The notes: generated from the letters alone by a model not told the origin. Shown: positions 684 through 14,890, counted from the stretch's first letter. The stretch: DNA of 64,000 bases from an uncultured Chloroflexia bacterium (GCA_963701285.1 OY969584.1:1979877-2043876); one strand, 5' to 3'. Numbers and translations: made by a program.

Positions 684-810
684 AGCCTGTCTCCTCTCTC
701 TGCCGATCACCGGCGTTGCCTGAAAATCATATCGCGGCTGCCAGGCTTGTCAAGACAGCGAATCTCAAGAATGGCTCGCCGGGCTCGAGTCCGCCCCAGG
801 CGGGGCGCCG

Positions 811-841
811 TTGACCGTCATGCGCCTGCTGATAGTATAAT
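811..841 (+). promoter_or_regulatory. candidate sigma70 promoter for pheST (TTGACC -35; TAGTAT/TATAAT -10)
   Basis: TTGACC at 811-816 and TATAAT at 836-841 (or TAGTAT at 833-838, 16-nt spacer), 25-30 nt upstream of the pheS ATG. Confidence 0.35.
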
Positions 842-866
842 AGCCACCGCCGACCCCGGAGAGCTT

Positions 867-1916
<1,050 letters not shown>

Positions 1917-9575: not shown

Positions 9576-9873
9576 GACGACCTCCTTACCTATCTAAAGA
9601 CGCAGCCCCTTGTCCCGTGGGACGAGGGGCCGTTCGTGGTTCCACCCACTTTCTCCCCCGACGCGTCGGAGGGCTCTTTGGGCCGCTAACGGGTGCCTCC
9701 GGGGCCGGCTACAGCCCGAATGGGGTTCGCCGGCCGGCTCCTAGGGGGTTTTCGCGGCGGCAGCGGGCGGGTGCCTTCCAGCCCAGGGGCGCCCTCTCTG
9801 GGGCCATGTCGTCGCTATCTGCCTGCCGGTAGGCAGGCTCGTCCTAGTCGTCGCCTTTATAGATATTCGGGAG
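9576..9873 (-). promoter_or_regulatory. putative T-box riboswitch leader of thrS (candidate Thr ACC specifier)
   Basis: 300-nt leader between tRNA-Val and thrS. Minus strand carries AGTGGGTGGAACCACG (core GGGUGGnACC-CG) at 9650..9634, followed by a 10-12 bp GC hairpin plus UCUUU (9630..9599), about 25 nt before the RBS. Confidence 0.5.
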
Positions 9874-9950
9874 TGGTGGGCGATAGAGGACTTGAACCTC
9901 TGACCTCAGCGATGTCAACGCTGCGCTCTAACCAACTGAGCTAATCGCCC
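9874..9950 (-). tRNA. tRNA-Val (anticodon GAC)
   Basis: Manual cloverleaf: acceptor GGGCGAU/AUCGCCC, D-arm GCUC-AGUUGGUUA-GAGC, anticodon stem CAGCG/CGCUG, loop UUGACAU, T-arm AGAGG-UUCAAGU-CCUCU, discriminator A, encoded CCA. Confidence 0.9.
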
Positions 9951-10134
9951 GCGAGTGCCCGCGCCCAGGATGGTATCAGAATCCGCCAAGCCGAGTCAAG
10001 ATTTGGCGATGCCTCTGGGCACCGGCTGTCCATCAGCTAGCCCCTGGCGCCAGCCCGAGACCGCCTCCCGGCGAGGCCCAACCGACAGCCAAGAGGTCAG
10101 GTGAAACGCGTCTGCTTCCCGAACCGCAAAATCG

Positions 10135-10301
10135 CCTCGCCCGCGACCCTTGATCTAGAGGACAGGCTGCCGGATGATTGTATTGGAGCCGCCGTGGGCC
10201 GGGCGAGCCCGGCGGCTTGTTGTCGCTTCTTCCTGTCGCGTGCCATGCTGCGGCAGCCCAGGGCCGCTAGCTCAATCGGAAGAGCAGCTGACTCTTAACC
10301 A
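10135..10301 (+). repeat. direct repeat copy A (167 bp, ~95% identical to 13566..13732): tRNA-Lys upstream region plus 5' half of tRNA-Lys
   Basis: Aligns base-for-base with 13566..13732 with about 8 mismatches. Homology stops exactly in the tRNA anticodon loop. The -10 element is TATACT in copy B and decayed to CATGCT here. Confidence 0.85.
10261..10298 (+). pseudogene. truncated tRNA-Lys (5' 38 nt through the anticodon loop only)
   Basis: GGGCCGCUAGCUCAAUCGGAAGAGCAGCUGACUCUUAA matches nt 1-38 of the intact tRNA-Lys at 13692, then diverges. Confidence 0.8.
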
Positions 10302-10483
10302 TCCCCGCCTCAACGCTGTGCATCACATAGCCCGATCCGTATCGAAAAGGGCACAATCATCCGCTATTCGGCGGCCAGGGGAATAGAGGATAACTGAGGC
10401 GGCGCCCTAGACCCTCGCCCTCTTCTTCAGGTACTCCAGCACGGCGATGTGGACGACGGCGGAGCGGGGAATCGTGAGCTCGT

Positions 10484-10816
10484 CTAGTAGTCTGGGTGAG
10501 GCCTCGGTTGTGGGAATCGGGCCGGATGGGCGGACAGCTCCCTTAACCATGGGACCATCTGGTCCGCGGCCACCTTCATTTCCGCGTCTATCCTCTTTAG
10601 TTCAGCCTGTTCCTCTGCTGTGATGATGGCGAAACGTAGCCCTTCGCCGGGGTTCCGGGACAGGCCACGATCCCGAATCTCAGCGTACTCCATGAGGAGT
10701 CCACGCCATCGCTCCAAGAGCGCGTCCAATTCTCGGTTGATTTTCTCGGTCTGCGCGTCCCACGCCTTCAATTCCTCGCCATCAATGGCCCACGCTGGCC
10801 TTTCGTCTTGGCGCAT
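10484..10816 (-). CDS. hypothetical protein (110 aa, predicted all-helical) inside the islet
   Basis: ORF only; no recognisable family. The 3' end overlaps an out-of-frame conserved RHH-like coding fragment (see findings). Confidence 0.35.
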   Translation of the reverse strand: MRQDERPAWAIDGEELKAWDAQTEKINRELDALLERWRGLLMEYAEIRDRGLSRNPGEGLRFAIITAEEQAELKRIDAEMKVAADQMVPWLRELSAHPARFPQPRPHPDY

Positions 10817-10870
10817 GTCGGTTCCTCTTAGACCTTCACCCTCTTCTTCTGTAGAGGAGGCGGGAGAGCT

Positions 10871-11203
10871 TCATGGCCTGCCCGTGCCTTTGGCCTGTAT
10901 GGCTTCTCGCAGATTGATGAGCGCCTTCCGCCAGGACACGATCTCCCTGTACTTGTCAACCGCGTTCCGAAGGTCTTGTTCTTCGCGCACCCAACGCCAC
11001 ATCGCTTCAACCCCAGAGCCGTACGGGGCACCCGCTGCCTCATAACGCCTCTTCAGCGCCTCATGGATTCTCATAGAGGCGGCGGCCACGGCATTTTGGA
11101 CAGGAGTCAGGGCCTTGCCCATGGCAGCCATCATATCTTCGATGGCCTTCTTCAAGGATGCCCACGACTCGGGATCACCGGCAGTTGGCTTCTGTGGCGT
11201 CAT
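10871..11203 (-). CDS. hypothetical protein (110 aa) inside the islet
   Basis: ORF only. ATG at 11203 lies 1 nt downstream of the stop of a short RHH-like coding fragment. Confidence 0.4.
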   Translation of the reverse strand: MTPQKPTAGDPESWASLKKAIEDMMAAMGKALTPVQNAVAAASMRIHEALKRRYEAAGAPYGSGVEAMWRWVREEQDLRNAVDKYREIVSWRKALINLREAIQAKGTGRP

Positions 11204-11394
11204 CTCAGGCCGTCCTCGGCTTCCTTCGAACGTACTCCACCACGGCGATGCGGATCACCGCACTGCGGGGGATGGTGAGTTGCTGCGCCAGTTGGCGCTA
11301 TTCTACCACGTGCAAGGCCCCATCTTCAGCCGCCGCGTATTGCCGCCTTCGAGACTTTCTGGGATGATACGGCCGCCGGCCTGGGGAAAGGGGC

Positions 11395-11535
11395 GATTCC
11401 CATGCGCGGTGGCGCCGCCAAGGCCGTCAGGAAAGCCGCCGAGGCCGCCAGGATAAGGGGCCGTCGAGGCCGCCAGGAGGGCCGCCGAGGCCGCCAGGAT
11501 GAGGGCCGTCGAGGCCGTCAGTAATAGGGCCGCCA
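11395..11535. repeat. GC-rich tandem repeat (~24-bp unit GGCCGYCGAGGCCGCCAGGAKRAG, ~5 copies)
   Basis: Seen directly: ...gccgccgaggccgccaggataagg ggccgtcgaggccgccaggagg gccgccgaggccgccaggatgagg gccgtcgaggccgtcagtaatagg... Confidence 0.6.
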
Positions 11536-11650
11536 TGTATGCCGAGGCCGCTAGGAAAGAAAGGGCCTAGCACGGCCGCTATGGCGTAGTTGTGCTCGCA
11601 TTCGTGGCCGTCGCCGCCTTCGCTGCGGGCGGCTGCTATGCCAGGAGGCG

Positions 11651-12106
11651 GTGGCTTACGTAGGGCCCAAGAAATCAAAGGAGGCTTTTGACGTGATGTA
11701 CAAGCATGAACCGCACCCGTATCTGCTGCGCCGCCAGCGCGGCGAAGTGCGACCGCCGAAGGTGCGCGACGAGCATATCGGGCTTAATGGGAAGATCGCG
11801 GTGGCACTGACGAACGGGGTGGGCACCATGTGGTGCGCGTACGTCTTCGCCATCGTGGCGCTGATCGCTTTGCCATTCGTTCATACCACACTCCAGCTGA
11901 TACAGTGGATCAGCCAGACGTTCATTCAGTTGGTGATGCTATCCGTGATCATGGTCGGTCAGAACGTCCAGGGCGGGGCAGCAGACAAGCGAGCTGAGCT
12001 AACCTATAACGATGCCGAAGCTGTCTTACACGAGTGCCTGGAGATACAGCGCCACCTGAAAGAGCAAGACAAAATGCTCGGCGGGTTGACTGCCAAGGCC
12101 AAATAG
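11651..12106 (+). CDS. DUF1003-family membrane protein
   Basis: ...IALPFVHTTLQLIQWISQTFIQLVMLSVIMVGQNVQGGAADKRAELTYNDAEAVLHE resembles the DUF1003 core (FDPYPFILLN...MSQNRQ...DR.RAE.DY.VN..AE). Start could be M1 or M16. Local GC is lower than the flanks. Confidence 0.55.
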   Translation: MAYVGPKKSKEAFDVMYKHEPHPYLLRRQRGEVRPPKVRDEHIGLNGKIAVALTNGVGTMWCAYVFAIVALIALPFVHTTLQLIQWISQTFIQLVMLSVIMVGQNVQGGAADKRAELTYNDAEAVLHECLEIQRHLKEQDKMLGGLTAKAK

Positions 12107-12219
12107 ACAGACCTCGTGTCGGAGGCGGTGGGGGGAGGTAGGGCCAAAAGCGTTGACGCCTTCGAGGCGGTCTGGCACGATGCGGGCGCTGGCCTGGCCG
12201 TAGCGATGGGGGTGCAACC

Positions 12220-12936
12220 ATGCGGAGACACTTACGGCTGGCATTGTTGGTCGCGGCGCTGGTGCTCGGTGGCGCCGCGTTCCTCTTCCTGTCCCGCACG
12301 TCCGCCCAGCAGGCGAGGGTTGTCCACCTAGCTCAGGGCTGGAACCTAGTCACGTGGACAGGCGCAAGCCAGTCCACTTCCGGAGCCCTGGCTGGTGTCG
12401 GCGATGCCGTGCAGGCTGTATACGGCTACAGTAACGATTCCCAGAGCTTCACGCGCTACATCTTCGGCATGCCAGAAATTTCCCCGCTGACTGATTTTGA
12501 GACAGAGGGTGCCTACTGGGTTCTGACCCTGCGAGCTACGGACTGGTCGGTGCCAAGCGCAGCCGAGTCTACCTGTCCTGCACCGACACCTTGTCCTAAT
12601 TGCCCTACGCCAAGCTTGCAGGGCGAACTGTGCACATCCTACAAAATGGGCATCGAGTTGAACACGATCTTCGTGGAGATCGCGGACGAAGGTCTATACG
12701 TGGGGCAGACGGCTGCCGAACTCCGTGCTGTTCTTCAGCAGGATCAGCAGAACTTCAACCAGTACTGCCAGGGCGTCACCCTGCTGCAACCCACGTTGGC
12801 GACGGCCGATTGTGCAATAGCTGCGAAGTGGGTAGGCATCGAAGACACGACGGTGCTCTATGCTCCAAGCGCCCAGGTTCAGGTCTGGGGGAATCAGTTC
12901 GACAGCATCGTTCACAAGTATTGCCTGGGCCAGTAG
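12220..12936 (+). CDS. hypothetical secreted/anchored Cys-containing protein (238 aa)
   Basis: N-terminal MRRHLRLALLVAALVLGGAAFLFL signal/anchor; no known domain. About 57% GC against 68-70% in the flanks. Confidence 0.5.
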   Translation: MRRHLRLALLVAALVLGGAAFLFLSRTSAQQARVVHLAQGWNLVTWTGASQSTSGALAGVGDAVQAVYGYSNDSQSFTRYIFGMPEISPLTDFETEGAYWVLTLRATDWSVPSAAESTCPAPTPCPNCPTPSLQGELCTSYKMGIELNTIFVEIADEGLYVGQTAAELRAVLQQDQQNFNQYCQGVTLLQPTLATADCAIAAKWVGIEDTTVLYAPSAQVQVWGNQFDSIVHKYCLGQ

Positions 12937-13163
12937 GGTGCCCGGTGGGTGGTCGCCCTCGCCGCAGGCGCCTGGCATGCCAGGAGGCGGCGGCTGCGCT
13001 AACGCGCGGCTGGCTGCTCGTCCTGACCCTTGCCAACCTCATTCTGACCAACGCCCTCGCGTGGTTCACCATCGCCCAGGGCTGGCCAACGCCATCGCGT
13101 GTGCCGGTTGCCCCGACCTCCAGCCCCTGCGCCAGCAAGGGCCAGCCGTCACCGGCGGAGACG

Positions 13164-13378
13164 CTATCCTTCTTCGTACTTGAACGAGAGCTTGATTCTC
13201 GCGCGGTAAAGGACCACCTTGTTCCCATCGACGGTCATGTCGAGCTTCTTGACCTCCGCGATCCGTAGATCGCGCAGCGTGCTGCTGGCGCGCTCGACCG
13301 CAGCGCGGGCTGCCGCTTCCCACGACTCCGTGCTGGTTCCCACGATTTCTATGATCTTGTAGACACTCTCTGCCATGG
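13164..13378 (-). CDS. dodecin-family flavin-binding protein (71 aa)
   Basis: MAESVYKIIEIVGTSTESWEAAARAAVERASSTLRDLRIAEVKKLDMTVDGNKVVLYRARIKLSFKYE matches the dodecin fold pattern. ATG at 13378 with AAGGAGGT 6 nt upstream. The track ORF is N-extended. Confidence 0.7.
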
Positions 13379-13565
13379 CTGACACCTCCTTGTGCTCTAC
13401 TCGGGTTGCCATCGTACCGCCGCCGCAGCGCTGTGGCAACTGCATGTACTCGTCCAGTACATGGGTGACACCAGGGAGGGTACGTCAGGAGGAGGTGAGG
13501 GAGCTAGGGCTGCTTAGCGCCCGCGTCTTGACCGCAAGGGCCGTCCCAGCCCAACCGTAAGACCA

Positions 13566-13732
13566 CCTCGCCCGCGACCCTTGATCTAGAGGACAGACTG
13601 CCGGATGATTGTATTGGAGCCGCCGCGGGCCGGGCGACCCCGGCGGTTTATTGTCGCTTCTTCCTGTCGCGTGCTATACTGCGGCAGCCCAGGGCCGCTA
13701 GCTCAATCGGAAGAGCAGCTGACTCTTAATCA
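13566..13732 (+). repeat. direct repeat copy B (167 bp), containing the intact promoter and 5' half of the functional tRNA-Lys
   Basis: Partner of 10135..10301. Carries TTGTCG-N18-TATACT 7 nt upstream of tRNA +1. Confidence 0.85.
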
Positions 13733-13767
13733 GCGGGTTCGGGGTTCGAGTCCCTGGCGGCCCACCA
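13692..13767 (+). tRNA. tRNA-Lys (anticodon CUU)
   Basis: Manual fold: acceptor GGGCCGC/GCGGCCC, anticodon stem GCUGA/UCAGC, loop CUCUUAA, T-arm CGGGG-UUCGAGU-CCCUG, discriminator A, CCA encoded. Confidence 0.9.
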
Positions 13768-13769
13768 CA

Positions 13770-13854
13770 GGGGAAGTGTCGGAATTGGCAGACGAGCATG
13801 ATTTAGGATCATGTGCCGGAAGGCGTGGGGGTTCGAGTCCCCCCTTCCCCACCA
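13770..13854 (+). tRNA. tRNA-Leu (anticodon UAG), class II with long variable arm
   Basis: Acceptor GGGGAAG/CUUCCCC, anticodon stem CAUGA/UCAUG, loop UUUAGGA, 13-nt variable arm, T-arm GGGGG-UUCGAGU-CCCCC, CCA encoded. Lies 2 nt after tRNA-Lys. Confidence 0.9.
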
Positions 13855-13882: not shown

Positions 13883-14890
13883 ATGGCAGCACCCCTGCTG
13901 CAGGTCAAAGACCTGAAGACATACTTCTTCACCGATGACGGCGTGGTGAAGGCGGTAGACGCCGTCAGTTACGACGTTCAGACGGGCGAGATCGTTGGTC
14001 TGGTGGGAGAGAGCGGCTGCGGCAAGACGGTCAGCGCCCTGTCGATCTTGCGACTGATCCCCAATCCCCCCGGCAAGATCATCGCCGGCGAGATCCTTTT
14101 CGAGGGCGAAGACCTCCTCAAGGCCGACGACCAGGAGATCCGCGACATCCGCGGCCACCGCATCGCCATGATCTTCCAGGAACCGATGACTTCCCTCAAT
14201 CCCGTACTCACCATCGGCCGCCAGATCACCGAGAGCCTGGAGCTGCACCTGAAGATGGACCGCGCCAGCGCCACGCGCCGCGCCATCGAGCTGCTGGGAA
14301 TGGTGGGCATCCCCGAGGCCAAAGCCCGGATCGGTGGCTACCCCCACCAGTTCTCAGGCGGCATGCGCCAGCGGGTGATGATCGCCATGGCTCTGTCCTG
14401 TAACCCCAAGCTCCTGCTGGCAGACGAGCCCACTACCGCCCTCGACGTTACCATCCAGGCCCAGATTCTGGAGCTCCTCACTGAGCTCACCCGCGAGCTG
14501 GGGACGGCGGTGATAATCATTACCCACAACCTGGGGGTCGTCGCGCGCTACGCCGACCGAGTCTATGTGATGTACGCCGGCAAGATAGTGGAGACGGCAC
14601 CCGCCCGCGAGCTGTACGGCAACCCCCGCCACCCTTACACGCTCGGCCTGCTCAAGTCGGTGCCCCGCCTCGACCAGGTGCGCAAGGACCGCCTGGAGCC
14701 CATCGAGGGCTTCCCCCCGGACCTCATCAACATGCCCGAGGGCTGCTCCTTCCGGCCGCGCTGCAAGTACGCAATGCCCCGCTGCGAGCGGGAGTCGCCG
14801 CCCCTCCTGGCGGTGTCCAGCATCCACCAGGCCGCTTGCTGGGAGTGGCAGCGCGTCGGCGAGGACGTCAAGTCGCGGGCCCCGGCCTGA
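13883..14890 (+). CDS. oligopeptide/dipeptide ABC transporter ATP-binding protein (OppD/DppD type)
   Basis: 335 aa; Walker A GESGCGKT, signature LSGGMRQR, Opp C-terminal extension. SD GAGGAGAG upstream. Confidence 0.9.

Follow-up and report, generated by a model that had tools for sequence, protein, structure and literature searches.

An integrase-less islet at a Chloroflexota tRNA-Lys gene, probably derived from integrative elements that target the anticodon loop

A small, low-GC islet lies between a tRNA-Val(GAC) gene and a tRNA-Lys(CTT) gene in the 64-kb stretch of DNA analysed here (hereafter the window), and is bounded by two 167-nt direct repeats, copy A and copy B (Table 1). In a pairwise comparison within the window, the copies were identical at 160 of 167 positions (95.8%), close to the 95% first estimated, and a fainter similarity extends upstream to positions 10119 and 13550. 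All seven mismatches fall in the promoter part of the repeat, where the copies diverge by 5.6%, and the 41-nt tRNA part is identical. The identity stops after tRNA-Lys nt 38, with which the anticodon loop (CTCTTAA) ends. The 38-mer corresponding to nt 1–38 has exactly two occurrences in the 64 kb, where none would be expected by chance. Only copy B runs on into an intact tRNA-Lys(CTT) gene, recognised by both ARAGORN and Rfam, for which the promoter scan called TTGTCG-18-TATACT at 13651–13680, with an upstream TG. The same scan called no promoter for copy A, in which the −10 position reads CATGCT, and no trace of a duplicated tRNA-Lys 3′ half was found with up to 10 mismatches allowed. The original prediction had thus correctly placed the break in the anticodon loop, the functional gene at copy B and the decayed −10 box at copy A, and had recognised that the duplicated portion is the promoter plus the 5′ half instead of the 3′ end.

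Table 1. Features of the islet and its borders (positions in the window).
Feature	Position	Strand	Basis
tRNA-Val(GAC), conserved left neighbour of the integration site	9874-9950	-	ARAGORN; Rfam 72.5 bits
Promoter-like site of tRNA-Val(GAC)	9970-9999	-	Promoter scan
Copy A, attL-like: displaced native tRNA-Lys promoter region with decayed -10 (CATGCT)	10135-10301	+	160/167 match
tRNA-Lys nt 1-38 in copy A, without 3′ half	10261-10298	+	Exact 38-mer match
Element left arm (Y or P′ arm), starting CCATCCCCGCCTCAACGCTGTGC directly after the anticodon loop	10299-10400	+	
Y-arm dyad, ATCATCCGCTATTC-N11-GAATAGAGGATAAC	10356-10394		
RHH remnant 1, C-terminal ribbon-helix-helix-like fragment (..LTIPRSAVVHIAVLEYLKK..) without N-terminal beta-strand	10407-10550	-	ORF list
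ORF a, 110 aa, unannotated	10484-10816	-	GC3 0.685
Tiny RHH remnant near ORF b	~10829-10849		
ORF b, 110 aa, unannotated	10871-11203	-	GC3 0.676; repeat D10
RHH remnant 3, 30-codon stretch downstream of an in-frame stop	11208-11297	-	Translation
Promoter-like module D6a (TTGCCGCC..GATGAT)	11340-11384	+	Repeat D6
GC-rich tandem repeat, period 21/46	11414-11534	+	TRF score 165, 2.4 copies of 46 nt
Membrane protein, weak DUF1003 match; probable start ATG 11697	11651-12106	+	GC3 0.632
Secreted Cys-rich protein, 238 aa	12220-12936	+	Family comparison
Dodecin gene, 70 aa, strong RBS	13164-13376	-	Pfam Dodecin 6e-25
Copy B, attR-like: native-type promoter and 5′ half of the functional tRNA-Lys	13566-13732	+	Repeat comparison, promoter scan
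Intact tRNA-Lys(CTT), integration target	13692-13767	+	ARAGORN; Rfam 66.3 bits
Putative crossover in the tRNA-Lys anticodon loop	13723-13729	+	
tRNA-Leu(TAG), conserved right neighbour	13770-13854	+	ARAGORN
dppD-like ABC ATPase, after tRNA-Leu(TAG)	13883-14890		ORF list, Pfam

The islet proper (10302–13565) is the lowest-GC 3.3-kb stretch of the window, with a GC content of 61.6% compared with 67.4% for the whole window and ~66.5% for the 5-kb flanks. A lower GC content had been predicted, although the contrast (61.6% against ~67%) is smaller than the 57% against 68–70% then proposed. Codon usage deviates from the core as well: the GC3 of the islet ORFs ranges from 0.63 to 0.78, compared with 0.853 ± 0.064 for the background (n = 34 ORFs), corresponding to z-scores of −1.2 to −3.4. 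The gene content is as originally listed, namely RHH-like fragments, the two unannotated ORFs a and b, a tandem repeat, a weakly matching DUF1003 protein, a secreted Cys protein and a dodecin. None of the ORFs in the islet (10302–13565) encodes an integrase, no homologue of the integrase family described below was found in the 64-kb window, and the islet contains no mobility genes.

RHH remnant 1 shares 83% DNA identity with an RHH-like region of the integrase-bearing element L132, and in a second such element, L138, the corresponding end, next to the tRNA fragment, bears an intact RHH_1 gene of 53 aa. RHH remnant 3, whose stop codon lies 1 nt ahead of the start of ORF b, matches RHH_1 weakly (E = 0.04) and is 73% identical to remnant 1 (repeat D4). 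ORF a has no Pfam match above threshold and none in PHROG, PADLOC or NCBIfam, and is unrelated to ORF b (BLASTP E = 9.4). Module D6a has a second, 80% identical copy at 12153–12197 (repeat D6), and modules of this type also precede cargo genes in L086, L088, L090, L106 and L107. The match of the membrane protein to DUF1003 (PF06210; E = 1.7e-4, 22.2 bits) falls under the 27.4 cutoff. The TAG stop of the gene for the secreted Cys-rich protein is followed in frame by a transmembrane-plus-Arg tail (module D5b, 12949–12995). This protein belongs to a family of 17, all metagenomic except the window's own copy, and a canonical tRNA-Thr integrative element in L082 carries a homologue with 63% identity among its cargo. 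The block containing the dodecin gene (13142–13492) is 93.7% identical to one in L103, where it adjoins a 5′-half fragment, while the core flanks of the two loci are 75% identical over thrS/T-box/tRNA-Val and 95% identical over the tRNA genes. The cargo of the islet is mobile, as one cargo family recurs in the L082 element and the dodecin block is closer between lineages than the thrS flank.

Past nt 38, copy A continues into the Y arm, which is conserved in nine loci, including the integrase-bearing elements L132 and L138, and whose first 23 nt are nearly invariant. Positions 10230–10397 of the window share 90.6% identity with L132 over ~170 bp, and the fragment and Y arm together are 84–91% identical to those of L132 and L138. 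The Y-arm sequence is unique in the window, and its dyad is confined to Y arms (six of six matches in 1.69 Mb), with compensatory changes in L113.

The same site was compared in related Chloroflexota contigs, with 44 metagenome loci. Empty sites, with the layout tRNA-Val, ~200 bp, tRNA-Lys, tRNA-Leu, dppD, are found in L002, L094, L099, L105 and L116, and probably in L109, whose contig ends inside the tRNA gene. Their synteny is preserved on both sides (thrS, T-box and tRNA-Val to the left; tRNA-Lys, tRNA-Leu and dppD to the right), the order of tRNA-Leu then dppD also being seen in the occupied L132, and the promoter of copy A is homologous to their native promoter. The block is therefore not carried by all relatives, and the islet deviates from the core in GC and GC3, so that both checks proposed with the original prediction turned out in favour of it. 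In three pairs of empty and occupied sites from the same population, the identity breaks at tRNA nt 38 or no more than three bases from it, and what separates the two members of each pair is a clean insertion with the identity block at its borders. Empty L116 matches occupied L090 without a mismatch for 696 bp, up to a break at nt 38. Between L094 (empty) and L132 (occupied), identity is 98.7% to the left and 99.1% over 1466 bp to the right, with a 44-nt overlap, and between L105 (empty) and L088 (occupied) it is 96–98%; in both of these pairs the break lies at about nt 41. No islet-free genome of the same species was found for the window's own lineage, for which the closest flanks are 88–92% identical, and neither a circular nor an excised form was seen.

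Empty sites could also result from secondary deletion within an ancient, vertically inherited block, as recombination between the two 5′ halves or promoters would remove the islet cleanly and mimic an empty site, and the divergence of the promoter copies indicates that the duplication is not very recent. We nevertheless consider such a history highly improbable. The most distant syntenic relative, L002 (ThrRS 72% identical), is empty, with 148 bp from tRNA-Val to tRNA-Lys, and the GC3 of the islet is far below that of the core. Islet content is wholly different between lineages that have the same junction, cargo blocks are more alike between lineages than the core thrS/T-box/tRNA-Val flank, and active-looking elements, with intact integrases, occupy the site in 99% identical backgrounds.

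Two such elements are complete in the tRNA-Lys site, L132 (11,033 bp from tRNA to fragment) and L138 (9,355 bp). In both, an Xer-like tyrosine integrase gene adjoins the intact tRNA-Lys on its 5′ side, and a 5′-half fragment lies at the far end; in L132 the order is intact tRNA-Lys, the integrase (311 aa; Phage_integrase, 6e-23), an AEP-TOTE/AAA_25 protein, other genes and the 5′-half fragment. Homologues of the integrase that are 76% (L126) and 48% (L120) identical are encoded directly upstream of tRNA-Lys(CTT) in two further loci. In the integrase, the catalytic domain is accompanied by a SAM-like N domain and no arm-binding domain is present; its best NCBIfam matches, below cutoffs, are to XerC/XerD, and its PDB matches include XerD (1a0p) and Brujita gp33 (5vfz). 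In all four loci, the region directly 5′ of the tRNA holds the integrase gene with a distinct X arm that has no relation to the native tRNA-Lys promoter, whereas the corresponding region of the window is of native type. The identity block of L132 and L138 spans tRNA nt −3 to 38/41, and only 41–44 nt are duplicated. The window has the same left junction as these two elements. Its islet shares with them the Y arm, RHH remnants and a few short promoter/tail modules, and otherwise no genes.

The junction also bears on the segmental duplication that the original prediction raised as an alternative. On such a reading no site-specific integration took place; segmental duplication or illegitimate recombination would have copied the promoter and 5′ half at the hotspot, through replication slippage or unequal exchange, with unrelated DNA accumulating between the repeats. 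The alternative is partly justified: integration accounts for only about 41–44 nt of the repeat, and the additional 126 nt of native-type promoter in copy B, which would not be duplicated by integration of an intact element, do require a second event. Moreover, islets without a 5′-half fragment lie between tRNA-Val and the tRNA-Lys promoter in L107, L111, L115 and L131, so DNA must also have been gained or lost by other routes at this intergenic spot. As an account of the islet, however, segmental duplication is improbable and largely refuted, because the attL junction is shared with integrase-bearing elements. In the window the break falls at tRNA nt 38, the independent loci break at nt 38–41, and the conserved 23-nt start of the Y arm follows; a tandem segmental duplication was rejected, as copy A does not continue into the tRNA 3′ half or tRNA-Leu. 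The clean insertions in the empty/occupied pairs, the lack of any 3′-half copy at up to 10 mismatches and the foreign composition of the islet also argue against it.

The explanation that we favour, and regard as very probable from the sequence comparisons, is that the islet is an integrase-less remnant or derivative of the 9–11 kb Chloroflexota integrative elements that insert, in the uncommon 5′-distal orientation, at the tRNA-Lys(CTT) anticodon loop. The empty sites, the same-population pairs and the junction shared with L132 and L138 all support what was first suggested, an integrative element that entered by tyrosine-integrase crossover in the anticodon loop and has since degraded. It is a derivative of the family and not a complete member, because the integrase is absent from the islet and present in L132, L138, L126 and L120. 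During integration, the Xer-like recombinase would recombine an element site consisting of X arm, tRNA nt −3 to 38/41 and Y arm with the chromosomal gene, strand exchange probably taking place inside the anticodon loop. The chromosomal tRNA 3′ half would thereby be joined to the element-borne 5′ half and its upstream region, and the chromosomal promoter and 5′ half would stay behind as a fragment adjoining the element Y arm. The window retains this fragment as copy A, together with the Y arm and its dyad, the RHH remnants and the low-GC cargo, and would have lost the replication genes, the X arm and the integrase, which was presumably once present; the displaced promoter of copy A has lost its −10 box.

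Simple decay of an L132-type element does not produce the observed right end of the islet, because that end has a native-type promoter and a 167-nt repeat, with 126 nt of promoter on both sides, instead of an X arm and 41–44 nt. Either secondary recombination or an integrase-less mobilisable form is thus needed. In the favoured derivation from an integrase-bearing element, the promoter of copy B would have been acquired in a second recombination event, the weakest step of the scheme, either by one-ended gene conversion with copy A as the template or by homologous exchange with an allele carrying a fragment-less islet.

It is also possible, though rather unlikely, that the islet never had an integrase and is a small CIME- or satellite-like element, whose att site would consist of the host-type tRNA-Lys promoter, the 5′ half and the Y arm. 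Its insertion, and possibly its excision, would depend in trans on the Xer-like integrase of a co-resident element, or on RecA acting through the 167-nt homology in a Campbell-type event. A native-like promoter is found at the right end of all three integrase-less islets that keep a fragment (those of the window, L088/L119 and L103), and an X arm at each of the four right ends that bear an integrase. If such an islet were excised between its two 5′ halves, the resulting circle would contain the promoter, a 5′ half and the Y arm, and its reinsertion would recreate the observed structure. The family integrase, lacking an arm-binding domain, resembles simple Xer/Brujita-type enzymes that need only core sites. 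In each fragment-keeping locus found by way of its intact tRNA, the tRNA part of the fragment matches that gene at 100% identity. Against this reading, neither a circle nor a free attP junction of such a type was found among the 44 metagenome loci, and no helper integrase lies within the 64-kb window. The promoter of copy B is lineage-specific (96% identical to copy A and 73–81% identical to those of other lineages), unlike a shared element-borne sequence, and each copy has its own derived changes relative to outgroups, which fits divergence after duplication within the genome or lineage.

CIMEs (cis-mobilisable elements) are decayed islands with flanking att sites and without recombination genes, known from the ICEs of Streptococcus thermophilus. 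The islet resembles them in that it is flanked by attL- and attR-like repeats of a known family, lacks recombination and mobility genes and has one att arm in common with full-length elements, but its right-hand site has a host-type promoter instead of an element arm. The family integrase, at 311 aa and with no predicted arm-binding domain, is similar in sequence to simple integrases such as Xer and gp33 of mycobacteriophage Brujita, although the window itself encodes no such protein.

Integrative elements that recombine with the 5′-distal part of a tRNA gene were reportedly described by Zhao and Williams (2002, J Bacteriol 184:859). Further bacterial and archaeal cases are known (PMC6563490). 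As in those elements, the att block covers the 5′ part of the tRNA (nt 1–38 plus promoter in the window; nt −3 to 38/41 in L132 and L138), the 5′ half and the sequences upstream of it would have to come from the element, and the integrase lies beside the intact tRNA, here in the relatives L132 and L138 and not in the window. The Chloroflexota host, the tRNA-Lys CTT target and the Xer-like integrase appear to represent a separate lineage, and the window differs further in its lack of an integrase and in a repeat that extends 126 nt into the promoter. The islet is an ordinary genomic islet, whose rare 5′-distal orientation has already been described.

Canonical islands and prophages that target tRNA genes and cross over in the anticodon loop (Williams, 2002, NAR 30:866) are exemplified in the present data by the 6.57-kb tRNA-Thr(CGT) element of L082. 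Likenesses to this type are a tyrosine recombinase, an identity block beginning in the anticodon loop, direct repeats, cargo of low GC content and tandem accretion; an intact tRNA is regenerated as well. The window itself has tRNA-derived direct repeats with an intact tRNA and a deviant composition, and its relatives have empty sites; an integrase inside the element and beside att is lacking in the window islet and present in L132, L138, L126 and L120. In L082 the duplicated segment is the 3′ part of the tRNA (~45–50 nt, from the loop to the CCA end), as opposed to the 5′ part in the window and its relatives.

The region at 10135–13565 is horizontally acquired, non-autonomous DNA, delimited by the predicted direct repeat, which is confirmed: its two copies (A and B) agree at 160 of 167 positions, and fainter similarity runs another 16 nt leftward. 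The final 41 nt of each copy comprise tRNA-Lys nt 1–38 followed by 3 nt that match in part, and this 5′-half 38-mer occurs exactly twice in 64 kb, where no occurrence is expected by chance. As the original prediction stated, identity breaks in the anticodon loop, ending past the last base of CTCTTAA. The predicted contrast between promoters also stood up to a promoter scan: copy B has TTGTCG-18-TATACT with an upstream TG, whereas the −10 of copy A reads CATGCT and no promoter is called there. Both copies have a hairpin ahead of the −35 box that may shield the tRNA promoter from transcription arriving from upstream. The tRNA half in copy A is a fragment and not a gene; a tRNA intron or split tRNA was rejected because the intact gene is uninterrupted and its 5′ half is present twice. 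Decayed further copies of either tRNA half (≤10 mismatches, ungapped) were found neither in the window nor in 29 related loci, which gives no support to the idea that earlier insertions had accumulated in tandem in the window. The 38-mer had no match in IMG/VR viral contigs.

Coordinates of features in the window and in comparison loci
Feature	Locus	Position	Strand	Remarks
T-box leader-like RNA	window	9615-9860	-	5′ of thrS; Rfam RF00230 match at 39.3 bits (E=4e-6), under the gathering score (93)
tRNA-Val(GAC)	window	9874-9950	-	Upstream of T-box-like leader and thrS
Repeat copy A	window	10135-10301
Repeat copy B	window	13566-13732
GC-rich hairpin (GCCGGGCGAnCCCGGC), then T-rich stretch	window	10198-10213; 13629-13644	+	Just upstream of -35 box, both copies
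tRNA-Lys fragment	window	10261-10298
Promoter-like box TTGACGCCTTCGAG..N..CAYGATGCGG	window	11340-11384; 12153-12197		Also in L088, L090, L106, L107
Promoter-like box	L086	4100-4140
Remnant of similar TM-plus-Arg tail	window	11610-11663
TM-plus-Arg tail	window	12934-12999	+	21 in-frame codons after TAG stop of 238-aa protein; GARWVVALAAGAWHARRRRLR, then stop
tRNA-Lys(CTT), intact	window	13692-13767
tRNA-Leu(TAG)	window	13770-13854		Followed by dppD-like ABC ATPase
tRNA-Thr(CGT) 3′ part, three direct copies	L082	3467-3516; 6825-6874; 13395-13444
Shortened tRNA-Lys fragment and Y arm	L113	~1700-1870		tRNA-Lys set on +
Same	L097	~750-915		tRNA-Lys set on +
tRNA-Lys 5′ half	L127; L129	~3958; ~868		tRNA half set on +
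Extra DNA beside tRNA-Val	L122; L091; L112; L105	618-1000; 626-970; 7379-7930; 7321-7598		tRNA-Lys set on +

The islet between the repeat copies is 3264 bp long and is the lowest-GC 3.3-kb stretch within the window, although the contrast is smaller than predicted (61.6% against 67.4% for the window, not 57% against 68–70%). Its codon usage deviates as well, the GC3 of its five credible ORFs being 0.63–0.78 against 0.853 ± 0.064 for 34 background ORFs. The gene content was correctly anticipated in kind. It consists of hypothetical proteins including two 110-aa ORFs unrelated to each other, three decayed ribbon-helix-helix (RHH) C-terminal fragments, a GC-rich tandem repeat, a membrane protein whose DUF1003 match is sub-threshold, a 238-aa secreted Cys-rich protein and a dodecin. 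The islet encodes no integrase and has no matches to phage or defence families; in searches of its proteins against PHROG, PADLOC and NCBIfam, the dodecin alone matched. No record matched ThrRS, DppD or the 70-aa dodecin exactly, and an exact look-up of the 238-aa protein returned solely a 1.3-kb contig identical to the window.

Unoccupied tRNA-Val/tRNA-Lys/tRNA-Leu sites do exist in relatives. The best relative among the matches listed in a ThrRS-based scan of species-representative genomes is a Chloroflexi MAG (L002; ThrRS 72% identical) that has the gene order of the window with just 148 bp from tRNA-Val to tRNA-Lys. An exact scan of metagenome contigs for the 38-mer yielded 44 loci, many of them from related lineages whose flanks, tRNA genes excluded, are ~75–92% identical to the window's. 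The site is empty in L094, L099, L105 and L116, where tRNA-Val lies ~180–250 bp from tRNA-Lys and tRNA-Leu, and probably in L109, whose contig ends inside the tRNA. Occupied loci include L088/L119 and L103, where a 5′-half fragment and an islet of 2.4 or 1.4 kb precede the intact tRNA, and four contig ends (L090, L102, L106, L130) whose sequence continues after the fragment just as the window's does. In pairs of empty and occupied alleles from one population, the difference is a clean insertion delimited by the 5′ portion of the tRNA gene. Empty L116 and occupied L090 share 696 bp at 100% identity, stopping at tRNA nt 38; L105 and L088 are 96–98% identical on both sides; and L094 matches the occupied L132 at 98.7% to the left and, across 1466 bp to the right, at 99.1%, with a 44-nt overlap between these blocks (tRNA nt −3 to 41). 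The T-box-like segment upstream of thrS is kept in related loci at ~80% identity.

Integrase-bearing relatives were found at the same site. In L093/L110, a 311-aa ORF lies directly upstream of tRNA-Lys(CTT) in divergent orientation, and homologues sharing 76% and 48% identity with it are likewise placed in L126 and L120, respectively; ORFs of the L093/L110 type are tyrosine recombinases (Phage_integrase, 6e-23 and 6e-24). The integrase is Xer-like, scoring well under the XerC/XerD equivalog cutoffs, and XerD, XerA and mycobacteriophage Brujita gp33 are the solved structures closest to it. The 64-kb window encodes no homologue. Context look-ups of an identical protein and a 72%-identical homologue led to two complete elements, L132 and L138. 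The former reads dppD, tRNA-Leu, intact tRNA-Lys, integrase, five unannotated genes around a primase-helicase-like AEP-TOTE/AAA_25 protein, DUF1508 and NYN, with the 5′-half fragment 11,033 bp from the intact copy. The latter, of the same kind and 9,355 bp in length, carries AAA_25/DnaB_C, weak ClpP and tape-measure matches, a second integrase and an intact 53-aa RHH_1 protein adjoining the fragment. In both, the repeat is limited to a 41–44 nt tRNA block, and the X arm, the stretch that separates integrase from tRNA, bears no relation to the native promoter. The Y arm, which follows the fragment, is shared with the window, where 10230–10397 is 90.6% identical to L132 and the RHH-like region 83%. 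In a nine-locus alignment, the first 23 nt past the crossover are nearly invariant. About 60 nt in lies a dyad, ATCxxCTRTTC-N11-GAAYAGxxGAT, which shows compensatory changes in L113 and is confined to Y arms in 1.69 Mb of fetched sequence. The X arm of the intact elements and the Y arm of the window aligned locally only in short, low-scoring motifs, which were not taken as homology.

The shared Y arm, the intact elements and the empty sites support the main reading of the original prediction, that of a degraded integrative element at a tRNA gene. On this reading, the family integrates at the anticodon loop of tRNA-Lys(CTT) through exchange by its tyrosine recombinase, replacing the 5′ half and upstream region of the gene and leaving the chromosomal promoter and 5′ half behind as a left-hand scar. 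Strand exchange inside the loop is predicted from the inner end of the identity block and by analogy from canonical anticodon-loop integrases such as that of L082, a comparison locus. The window has kept the scar and Y arm together with RHH remnants, but it lacks an integrase and so is a non-autonomous derivative. The displaced promoter is intact in L090, L102, L106, L130, L132 and L138 and has lost its −10 box in the window, which suggests that the window's insertion is older. L113 (and equivalently L097) is an islet even more decayed, in which just 8 nt of the fragment (ACTCTTAA) are left; the Y arm, dyad and RHH remnant behind them are well preserved, and the native-type promoter of the intact tRNA-Lys is ~150 bp away.

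Genes for tRNAs are classical targets of tyrosine integrases, and it is normally their 3′ part that is duplicated. The window locus is a decayed member of a known but rare kind, 5′-distal tRNA integration, likened here to that of Zhao and Williams (2002, via a secondary citation). The element family in these Chloroflexota contigs appears to be undescribed so far, as judged from the lack of named matches here rather than from a full survey of the literature. The tRNA-Val/tRNA-Lys/tRNA-Leu cluster is shown to be an active integration hotspot in an uncultured Chloroflexota lineage, with small elements of this rare orientation documented by empty and occupied alleles of the same populations. Genomic-island detectors usually expect a duplicated tRNA 3′ end with an integrase beside it, and would miss or mis-delimit such 5′-distal islands. 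The family is also a natural system in which to ask how a tRNA is expressed once a mobile element has replaced its promoter and 5′ half; the practical gain for annotating the window itself is modest.

On the right side of the window's repeat stand 126 nt of native-type promoter, where the intact elements have the X arm. Such a promoter, with indels, also stands at the right end in L088/L119 and L103, the other integrase-less islets with a retained fragment. Copies A and B each show their own derived changes relative to outgroup promoters, so the outgroups do not tell which is native; the separate changes fit duplication within the lineage followed by divergence. One candidate origin of the copy B promoter is one-ended gene conversion or template switching at the 5′-half repeat, which would have overwritten the integrase and X arm with the native promoter. 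Another is homologous exchange with an islet allele that has no fragment, and alleles of that kind were found: in L107, which shares its population with L116, an insertion of 3148 bp lies immediately 5′ of the native promoter, and similar islets occur in L111, L115 and L131. As a third candidate, an integrase-less circle of promoter, 5′ half and Y arm may have been inserted in trans. It is possible, though we think it improbable, that the site's integrase-less islets are a distinct class of mobilisable elements, whose attachment site is a host-type tRNA promoter plus tRNA 5′ half and whose fragments and Y-arm dyad are selected. Each insertion would then swap the promoter of an essential tRNA and leave the old one firing into the islet; selection would maintain the perfectly conserved 5′-half fragments and the dyad, whether as sites of recombination or to supply tRNA-half RNA, and they would not be neutral scars.

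The secreted-protein family to which the 238-aa protein belongs has 17 members in all. A 63%-identical homologue is cargo of the canonical 6.57-kb element of L082, which carries an integrase, HTH_17 and AAA_25 and is flanked by the 3′ part of tRNA-Thr(CGT), beginning in the anticodon loop. In this locus, the element and an older, integrase-less 3.36-kb segment with PHA synthase genes form a tandem accretion. Another homologue lies in L086, within an array of small secreted-protein genes adjoining tRNA-Lys(TTT). This array and the window have two short modules in common, a promoter-like box and a C-terminal tail of a transmembrane segment plus Arg residues (TM-plus-Arg), both of which are also present in L132. 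The box precedes differing small secreted or membrane protein genes in the islets of several lineages, so that the islets look like arrays of self-promoted cassettes. The tail may be a C-terminal sorting signal or anchor peculiar to the lineage, which the window gene lost by nonsense mutation; an intact version ends the 423-aa metallophosphoesterase-like protein of the L111 islet (..AAGGWYARRRFSRS). Between the window and L103, identity reaches 93.7% in the dodecin block against ~75% in the thrS/T-box/tRNA-Val flank; the block lies beside the fragment in L103 but beside copy B in the window. Together with the other shared cargo, this identity and shifted position indicate that the islets are mosaics of exchangeable cargo.

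Two contigs of ~49% GC, L127 and L129, carry the identical tRNA-Lys 5′ half ~50 nt past a stretch whose translation reads as the C-terminal remnant of another tyrosine integrase (..ERLGHANIGITLGTYSHVFPG..). The 3′ half was not found there at ≤11 mismatches, ungapped. These contigs suggest a second element family that uses the 5′ half of tRNA-Lys. Several relatives have an extra 280–550 bp between tRNA-Val and its promoter, containing a small minus-strand ORF and second, partial tRNA-Val 5′ copies that a short hairpin interrupts; tRNA-Val looks like an insertion target in its own right.
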